Assembly (NCBI RefSeq): GCF_054482525.1
Contig: NZ_CM137006.1
Length of the DNA: 64,000 nucleotides
Strand: one strand, 5' to 3'
Shown here: in pieces, positions 14,516-17,500 of the stretch
Position numbering within the stretch: position 1 is the first letter of the stretch
How the letters are laid out: the number at the start of each line of letters is the position of its first letter
Position numbers: made by a program

Positions 14516-17500
14516 TAGTGTCCTTCGTGGCTGTAGTAAAAGACCGGTAATCCCAGCTTAAGACGTAGCGCCAGTAAACGGGCAAAAAAGCCGAATACCA
14601 GGGTGGAGATAATCACCACATCATGGTTAGAAACATAGTGTTGCAGCGCGATGTACAGCACGGCGGAGGCAAATGAGACACCGGCATACAACTCTTTCTG
14701 GAATACCAGTGGGATGCGTTTACAGAACATATCGCGCAAAACGCCGCCAAATACGCCGGTCGTCACAGCTGCGACAACGGCAATGATCGGGCCGTGTCCC
14801 ATATCCAGCGCAACCTGTGCGCCAATGATAGAAAAGACCACCAGTCCGAGCGCATCGAGCACCAGAAACACTTTGCGCAGGTAAGGCATTACAGGAGCAA
14901 CGATAGTGGTGAGTACTGCGGCGGTAGCGACAATAATCACATATTCCGGGTGTTTGACCCAGCCGAGCGGATAGTGGCCCAGCAGAATATCGCGCACTGA
15001 CCCTCCGCCAATTGCCGTGGCGGTCGCAATAATAATTACGCCAAATGTATCCATGCGCCGTCGTCCGGCCGCCAGCGCCCCCGTCATGGCTTCGGCAGTA
15101 ATGCCAACCAAATACAAAATGTGTAACAGCATGGTTCTCTCCCTAAAAATCTGTCTGGCAGGGTAGCGATTTGTGCGTATTGTCACGATTGAGATTTTTT
15201 AAGGTGAGAGGAAATTGATAACTTGTAGTTATGTGAAATCGCTATTTTCTGTAGCGTAGATGCATTCTTCTGACTTCTTGTCTGAGAAAATGCATAAGAA
15301 AAAATAGGTTAAAATTGAGGGGTGGAAAAGAAAGGTGCAATGTTAAGCCATTGTGTTCACCGCACCTGGACTTTGGCTTACGCATCGGGTATCTCAATCA
15401 ACAAAAAGAGTTTTTAGTTTCTGCTATTTCTTCTCTGTAATTTTTACACTGTTTTCCAACTGCTTGATGCTGACCTGCGGGGTCGGCAACTTAATACAAC
15501 CATTTTGGTGGTTTCAACGAAATGGTCAGATGCAGCTTGATTGCTGGCTTCGCACGCTTGAGTCGCGCGGGCCAGTACCTTTTGAAAATTGCGCCAGTCC
15601 CGATAATCCAGTAACGGTGCCAATTCTCTCGCTGACCAAAATTCTTGCCCTTCAGTGCCATAATGCCGTATTTCTTCAAAAGGTTGATGATGTTCGTTCA
15701 TTGCCCACTCCATGTGATATCGATTGCAAGGAAAGTAAGTCTACAACTGTGTTTATATACAGTTGTGAGTATCTCACGTTCTCACTGCGCTGGGCAAAAA
15801 AACATCGCAAAATCTGGAGCAGGCACGCAAAACAGAATTGAATGTTGCGGGGAGGAAAAATGCCGCTCTGTTTGAGTGGGCGGCATTTGTGAAGGCTGAA
15901 AAAGAAGAATTGGCGTTACGAGTTATTCGATGTTCTGGATCTGCTCGCGCATCTGCTCAATCAACACTTTCAGCTCGATGGCGGAGTTTGTCACTTCGGC
16001 ATTGATAGACTTCGACGCAAGAGTGTTCGACTCGCGGTTGAACTCCTGCATCATAAAGTCCAGACGACGACCAACGGCTTCTTTTTTCTTCAGAATGTTG
16101 TAGGTCTCTTTGACATGCGCTTCGAGGCGGTCCAGTTCTTCGGCTACGTCAATTCGCTGCGCCAGCAGCACCAGTTCCTGCTCCAGACGGTTGTTTTCCA
16201 GTTGCACCTGAGCATCTTCCAGCTTCGCGACCAGACGCTCACGTTGCCATTGCAGGATTTCCGGCATATGGGCGCGGACTTTGACCACTTCGGCGGTGAC
16301 GCCTTCCAGACGCTGCTCGATCAATGCTTTCAGCGCCTGACCTTCGGTTTCGCGCGCGACGATAAAGTCGTCCAGCGTACCATCCAACGCCGCGAGAATT
16401 TCAGCGGCAATCGCGTCGAGATCCTGCTCCTGGGCTGCCATCACGCCCGGCCAGCGTAGAATATCAACCGGGTTGATTTCCCCTTCGTCACTCTGCATTT
16501 TTACCCAGTTCGCGGCAGTTACCAGCTGTTTAGCCAGTTTTTCGTTGAGGATCAGCTCACCTTGCGCGCTAACATCTGGCTCATAACGCAGGGTACATTC
16601 CACTTTACCGCGCGTCAGGCGAGAACGAATACGCTCGCGAACGACAGGTTCAAGGCTACGGAACTGCTCCGGCAGACGAAAGTAAGTTTCCAGATAACGC
16701 TGGTTTACCGAGCGCATTTCCCAGGTTGCGCTCCCCCATTCACCCTTGATTTCACGCCGGGCGTAGGCGGTCATACTGCGGATCATAGACGTTCCTGTTT
16801 ATAAAAGGAGAGGTGGAAGGATTATAGCCATCGATGCCTTGTCAGGATAGGAATAACCGCCGGAAGTCCGTATAATGCGCAGCCACATTTGTTTCAAGCC
16901 GGAGATTTCAATATGCGTCCAGCAGGCCGTAGCAATAATCAGGTGCGTCCCGTTACCCTGACTCGTAACTATACAAAACATGCAGAAGGCTCGGTGCTGG
17001 TCGAATTTGGCGATACCAAAGTGTTGTGTACCGCCTCTATTGAAGAAGGCGTGCCGCGCTTCCTGAAAGGTCAGGGCCAGGGCTGGATCACCGCAGAGTA
17101 CGGCATGCTGCCACGTTCTACCCACACCCGTAACGCGCGTGAAGCGGCGAAAGGTAAGCAGGGTGGACGCACCATGGAAATCCAGCGTCTGATCGCCCGT
17201 GCTCTTCGTGCGGCAGTAGATTTGAAAGCGCTGGGTGAGTTCACCATTACGCTGGACTGCGACGTGCTTCAGGCTGATGGTGGCACGCGTACCGCGTCGA
17301 TTACGGGTGCCTGCGTGGCGCTGGCAGATGCGCTACAGAAGCTGGTGGAAAATGGCAAGCTGAAAACCAACCCGATGAAAAGGATGGTAGCCGCAGTTTC
17401 TGTCGGAATTGTGAACGGCGAAGCGGTTTGCGATCTGGAATACGTTGAAGACTCAGCCGCAGAGACCGACATGAACGTAGTGATGACCGAAGACGGGCGC

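Follow-up and report, generated by a model that had tools for sequence, protein, structure and literature searches.

The SOS gene dinD (pcsA) of Escherichia coli K-12 is located between yicG and yicC and encodes a protein of 274 amino acids (aa) that is described by the NCBIfam model NF008573 and contains the Pfam domain Bro-N. The dependence of this gene on LexA is established for K-12, and the data on its induction by DNA damage come from K-12 only. The gene is dispensable (PMC2577331). An intact dinD is also present in strain MS8324 and, under the protein accession WP_001297973.1, in many B2 strains. Here, the dinD locus was analyzed in a stretch of 64,000 nucleotides (nt) of contig NZ_CM137006.1 (assembly GCF_054482525.1), which is referred to as the window. 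This locus is very probably a lineage-inherited dinD pseudogene that is probably still transcribed during the SOS response but does not give rise to a working product. Its source is E. coli PCN033; the 790-bp yicG-yicC interval is 100% identical to the PCN033 genome, and a 5790-bp stretch around this interval contains a single base difference, at position 17381 in rph.

The genes of this region are arranged in the order ligB (plus strand), yicG (minus), dinD remnant (minus), yicC (minus), rph (plus) and pyrE (plus). The interval between the yicG start codon (ATG at 15132 as annotated by the Prokaryotic Genome Annotation Pipeline, PGAP) and the yicC stop codon, which begins at 15923, covers positions 15133 to 15922. 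This amounts to exactly the 790 bp that had been estimated by the original prediction, whose start coordinate of 15187 merely marks the end of a GTG-extended open reading frame (ORF). In strains with an intact dinD the same interval measures 1334-1337 bp and contains an 825-bp gene, a length that agrees with the original prediction and applies to both K-12 BW25113 and MS8324. The deletion was mapped to the base by aligning the interval with MS8324 (intact and of the same allele class) and BW25113, a comparison that had been proposed as a check of the truncation. The sole large lesion in this alignment is one 547-bp gap inside the dinD coding sequence, which takes out codons 71-252 plus the first base of codon 253; no microhomology was visible at the breakpoints in the alignment with either strain. 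The gap length (547 = 3 x 182 + 1) is not a multiple of three, which puts the preserved 3' end of dinD out of frame. The following features result from the deletion:

15491/15492: deletion junction, at which the minus strand reads GTATTA joined to AGTTGCC (alignment with MS8324 and BW25113).
15492-15701, minus strand: dinD 5' fragment, codons 1-70 in the native frame (alignment and translations), named 'BRO family protein, missing C-terminus' by PGAP.
15444-15701, minus strand: remnant ORF of 85 codons plus a TAA stop codon (15444-15446), consisting of 70 native and 15 frameshifted residues.
15424-15491, minus strand: dinD 3' fragment, out of frame, with two bases of codon 253, codons 254-274 and the native TAG stop codon (15424-15426).

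The frameshifted tail of the remnant has the sequence SCRPRRSASSSWKTV. The original prediction had described a remnant of 89 codons that keeps the DinD N-terminus. The truncation and the N-terminus are both confirmed; the 89-codon ORF (15444-15713, minus strand) begins at an upstream in-frame ATG at 15713, and dinD is annotated in all strains from the second ATG (15701), which the sequence GGAG (15708-15711) precedes by six bases, so the product comprises 85 aa and not 89. Neither of the findings that would have spoken for a complete gene was obtained, as DinD of the reference strains has 274 aa rather than about 90 and the ORF, with 70 native residues, does not align with it from end to end. 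The retention of the dinD 3' end (15424-15491) had been overlooked.

Position and descent identify the remnant as dinD, since it occupies the place between yicG and yicC and its alignment with K-12 and MS8324 is collinear to the left and right of the gap. The state of the gene before it was truncated is at present best represented by MS8324, which shares the N-terminal allele class and an identical LexA box with the window, shows 99.2% DNA identity across the retained 790 bp and differs in its intact 825-bp reading frame. K-12 dinD has the orthologous position, the first 11 residues, the ribosome-binding site and 19 of 20 operator positions in common with the remnant, and the last 21 codons are identical in DNA. 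In contrast to K-12 dinD, the remnant lacks 547 bp, is shifted in frame and retains 70 of 274 residues; among these, residues 12-70 represent a second allele class, with only about half of the positions identical to K-12. With its frame disrupted relative to intact orthologues of the same species, the locus is a pseudogene, and both pieces are marked as such by PGAP. In this respect its state is already known, as RefSeq flags the locus as pseudo, though without naming the pieces as dinD. The name given to the 3' fragment, 'DNA replication protein DnaD, missing N-terminus', is a mislabel; window positions 15424-15492 simply encode the C-terminal end of DinD. For annotation, it is of value that the 'BRO family protein' and 'DnaD' fragments are the two ends of dinD.

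The deletion removes a large part of the conserved protein. The Pfam Bro-N domain spans residues 10-105 of intact DinD and is cut after residue 70, which leaves 35 of its approximately 96 residues absent from the remnant. The DinD equivalog model NF008573 has a cutoff of 242 bits; the remnant reaches 107.9 bits over residues 1-76 and falls below it, compared with 504.7 bits for the intact MS8324 protein. The remnant lacks the combination of a complete BRO-N domain and a helical C-terminal domain that characterizes DinD. An exhaustive search for homologues yielded 750 cluster representatives at E <= 1e-30, of which 44 were aligned. An alignment-based AlphaFold2 model of intact DinD was obtained with a predicted local distance difference test score (pLDDT) of 94.2, and a single-sequence model (pLDDT 34) was discarded. 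The modelled N-terminal domain consists of beta strands 12-14 and 20-23, alpha helices 24-30, 36-52 and 57-60, beta strands 61-69 and 75-83 and alpha helix 85-93, followed by an all-helical domain of residues 100-273. According to this model, the cut lies directly after strand 61-69, so that its partner strand 75-83, helix 85-93 and all helices of residues 100-273 are lost. The best-conserved blocks among the 44 homologues, residues 81-120 and 201-210, are both located in the deleted part. A search of the DinD sequence against PDB chains gave no match.

The region upstream of the remnant was spared and contains the following features:

15745-15764, minus strand: predicted LexA (SOS) operator of dinD, the 20-mer AACTGTATATAAACACAGTT, with the core CTGT-N8-ACAG at 15747-15762.
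15702-15922, minus strand: dinD upstream region with promoter, 5' untranslated region and GGAG ribosome-binding site (15708-15711), assigned by orthology.

The 20-mer agrees with the K-12 dinD box AACTGTATATAAATACAGTT at 19 of 20 positions and represents the orthologous site. The single difference, a T to C change beside the ACAG arm, is also found in intact alleles such as MS8324, and C occupies this position in the K-12 lexA, yebG, polB and uvrD boxes as well. A symmetrised weight matrix was built from the 14 other K-12 SOS boxes listed in PMC3009722. With this matrix the window box scored 24.7 bits, compared with 26.6 bits for K-12 dinD, 21.8 bits for recA and 21.0 bits for lexA. It also outscored sulA and uvrB and was the top site of the 64-kb window, in which the next best site reached 14.0 bits. 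The bare CTGT-N8-ACAG motif is not rare, with 2 matches in the window versus 0.64 expected. By its sequence the site thus has the properties of an SOS operator, a palindromic CTGT-N8-ACAG near the consensus and at a promoter, as the description of a near-consensus operator had implied. The distance of about 35 bp that had been given for it fits the 33 bp between the core box (CTGTGTTTATATACAG, 15747-15762) and the ATG at 15713, but the distance to the true ATG at 15701 is 45 bp. A simple consensus scan of positions 15100-15950 on both strands found no sigma-70 promoter site above threshold, and the dinD promoter is therefore placed by orthology only. The 221 bp upstream of the dinD start contain only two differences relative to MS8324, and the promoter that drives intact dinD should therefore still be present. 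A LexA-regulated transcript from the remnant locus is thus a reasonable expectation.

The distribution of the deletion was analyzed with a 60-bp junction probe, which was searched in 5426 complete E. coli genomes at 100% identity as a single piece. An identical junction was found in 41 of the 5426 genomes (PCN033 and 40 others), whose sources include human, dog, chicken, wild animals, soil and water. In all 41 carriers PGAP annotates two pseudogene pieces, 'BRO family protein' and 'DNA replication protein DnaD'. An assembly artefact was ruled out by the presence of the identical junction in 41 independent complete assemblies, and a recurrent deletion at a repeat was ruled out by breakpoints without microhomology. 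The sharing of one such junction among the carriers suggests that the deletion had a single origin. A sample of 15 carrier genomes including PCN033 gave, together with the window, 16 sequences. These represent 8 haplotypes of the interval, with a nucleotide diversity of 0.4-1.6% in the neighbourhood and at least seven LigB protein alleles among the sampled carriers; the deletion allele is therefore not confined to one tight clone. The variable sites within the remnant ORF comprise 4 nonsynonymous changes (E3D, A24V, W36S and S81N) and 1 synonymous change, compared with 4 nonsynonymous and 76 synonymous sites in yicG, yicC and rph of the same 16 sequences. Fisher's test of the remnant versus its neighbours, with five remnant sites only, gave p = 1.7e-4, and p = 0.016 when the fast-evolving ligB was included. 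Two of the changes affect conserved residues, as A24 is Ala in 40 of 44 homologues and the position of W36 is aromatic in 42 of 44. This substitution pattern, drawn from few sites, looks typical of relaxed constraint.

These observations suggest the following course of events. One 547-bp deletion fused codon 70 to codon 253 at its second base, with a shift of the frame. It probably arose once and may since have been inherited, or spread by recombination, in one E. coli lineage that includes PCN033. Promoter region, LexA operator, ribosome-binding site and 3' end were left untouched, probably through chance of position. LexA would then repress the remnant locus, and DNA damage would de-repress it. 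The resulting SOS transcript would span about 0.4 kb and probably terminate close to the weak hairpin and U-run at 15333-15367, and its translation would produce an 85-residue polypeptide with an incomplete BRO-N domain that is probably unfolded, short-lived and functionless. Several observations weigh against this account. Despite 8 haplotypes and about 1% diversity, all 16 sequences retain an open remnant ORF of 85 aa without a second lesion, and the LexA box is invariant in the window and all 15 carrier genomes; furthermore, the substitution test has only five sites from 16 of the 41 carriers. For targets as small as 258 bp and 20 bp, an intact ORF and box are expected without selection, which may still have acted. 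On the proposed account the LexA box would be intact because there was too little time for its decay and not because it is maintained.

The open frame is also the starting point for a different explanation, in which the 85-residue product is a working SOS small protein that binds or interferes with a DinD partner such as RecA or DNA. A good ribosome-binding site precedes the ORF in all 16 sequences, residues 1-70 are native DinD, and modulation of RecA filaments by intact DinD has been reported (Uranga et al. 2011, cited in PMC4849656). However, the truncation splits a beta-hairpin and takes away 35 of about 96 domain residues, and all of the most conserved family blocks are deleted. The 15-residue tail is frameshift junk and itself variable (S81N), nonsynonymous changes occur at conserved residues (A24V and W36S), and a hydrophobic stretch as in SOS toxins such as TisB is missing. 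A working small protein is therefore judged very improbable.

The sequence on the 3' side of the remnant was analyzed for further elements of the transcript:

15133-15423, minus strand: native yicG-dinD spacer, 291 bp with 38.8% GC, collinear with and approximately 96-99% identical to the spacer in intact-dinD strains.
15333-15367, minus strand: candidate dinD terminator hairpin with a 10-bp stem and a 15-nt loop, followed by UUUCUUUU.
15457-15472, minus strand: 16-nt stretch of the dinD transcript complementary to tisAB RNA (plus strand CAACTGCTTGATGCTG), an exact match in the window.

The stretch between the remnant ORF and yicG had been described as AT-rich and non-coding. It is indeed AT-rich, with 35.8% GC versus 50.4% for the window, but it includes the out-of-frame dinD 3' end, and the remainder is native spacer. 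A foreign origin or a deletion scar was thus ruled out, as the stretch consists of the retained dinD 3' end and the normal spacer, which should hold the dinD 3' untranslated region and the yicG promoter. The hairpin at 15333-15367 (-12.8 kcal/mol, z = -1.84) also forms in K-12, and both substitutions in its arms preserve pairing; as a dinD terminator it is a weak candidate. No canonical terminator was found in the consensus scan of 15100-15950 on both strands.

The 16-nt stretch leads to the explanation that the remnant transcript acts as a regulatory RNA, which would pair with or titrate the SOS-induced tisAB toxin mRNA. It was retained just 3' of the junction, its partner sequence is present unchanged inside tisB of PCN033, and promoter and operator are intact. 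For K-12, the dinD-tisAB complementarity and a weak genetic interaction were reported, but the same study was unable to show any tisAB-dependent effect on dinD mRNA (PMC2577331). The 16-mer is merely inherited from intact dinD, and 8 of the 15 sampled carrier genomes contain a C to T change at position 15460 within it. Moreover, the 111-nt 3' region folds no better than shuffled sequences (z = 0.18), and the Rfam 15 covariance models gave no match at E <= 1 in positions 14000-17500 on either strand. A regulatory RNA of this kind is therefore considered extremely unlikely. More broadly, the chance is very slight that the remnant is maintained in the form of an SOS-induced RNA or of a 70-residue BRO-N stub acting on tisAB mRNA or a DinD partner; in that event, one E. 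coli lineage would have turned a dead gene into a small LexA-controlled regulator. Of the proposal that the locus gives rise to a LexA-regulated transcript which encodes a truncated peptide or acts as a non-coding RNA, the transcript is reasonable, but a function of its product is not supported in view of the frameshift, the broken BRO-N domain and the lack of an Rfam match. Partial SOS control of the co-directional yicG, by read-through from the LexA promoter that the deletion brought 547 bp closer, is scarcely credible: the two genes share a strand and are separated by a weak hairpin and U-run rather than a canonical terminator, but the spacer and hairpin are the same as in intact-dinD strains, so any read-through would not be new, and yicG has 0 occurrences among the UV-responsive genes of a tiling-array study.

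A decayed dinD with a probably still active promoter is one of several states of this locus in E. coli. The central 547 bp of dinD are covered to at least 80% in 4308 of the 5426 genomes and wholly absent in 754; in the others they are incomplete. Some strains have an empty yicG-yicC interval of 250 bp, others carry an in-frame 222-bp deletion that results in a 603-bp gene still annotated as dinD, and one strain has an ISKox3 insertion upstream. The breakpoints of these alleles differ from those of the window deletion and represent independent events; what they have in common is the same dispensable locus. The window allele is thus ordinary decay of an accessory gene and adds to the loss alleles of an SOS gene that is dispensable and patchy in its distribution. 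A literature search found no paper that mentions both PCN033 and dinD. As natural dinD nulls in which the LexA-controlled promoter is retained, PCN033 and the 40 further carriers among the complete genomes could serve as natural controls in studies of DinD function.

Two allele classes of dinD were observed, in which residues 12-83 are approximately 46% identical between the window/MS8324 type (window 15492-15670) and the K-12 type. Outside this segment the other 191 DinD residues differ at 4 positions, and the flanks are approximately 96-99% identical. The window type is present in about 2760 genomes, and the K-12 type or partial forms in about 1990. Such a split is suggestive of a recombination mosaic or of diversifying selection acting on the BRO-N domain. 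Intact DinD furthermore gives a full-length match (413 bits) to the PADLOC candidate phage-defence model PDC-S13 and also matches the N-terminal part of a 'Type I specificity subunit' model and PHROG 8036. Homologues are found in Streptococcus satellite phages, mycobacteriophages (labelled 'antirepressor') and Campylobacter phages. An origin from a mobile element or a defence system would fit the patchy distribution of dinD.

Two observations concern the neighbouring genes. Among the carriers, ligB (window 12830-14518) contains 33 nonsynonymous and 40 synonymous variable sites, compared with about 1 nonsynonymous per 20 synonymous sites in its neighbours, so that its evolution appears unusually relaxed or diversifying for a DNA ligase gene. 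In the carrier strain GF43, synteny with the window stops about 20 bp into the 3' end of yicC (window approximately 15943), and genes for a PerC-family regulator, an ImmA/IrrE peptidase and an IS3 transposase are found beyond this breakpoint; in GF43, a mobile element or a rearrangement seems to have interrupted yicC.
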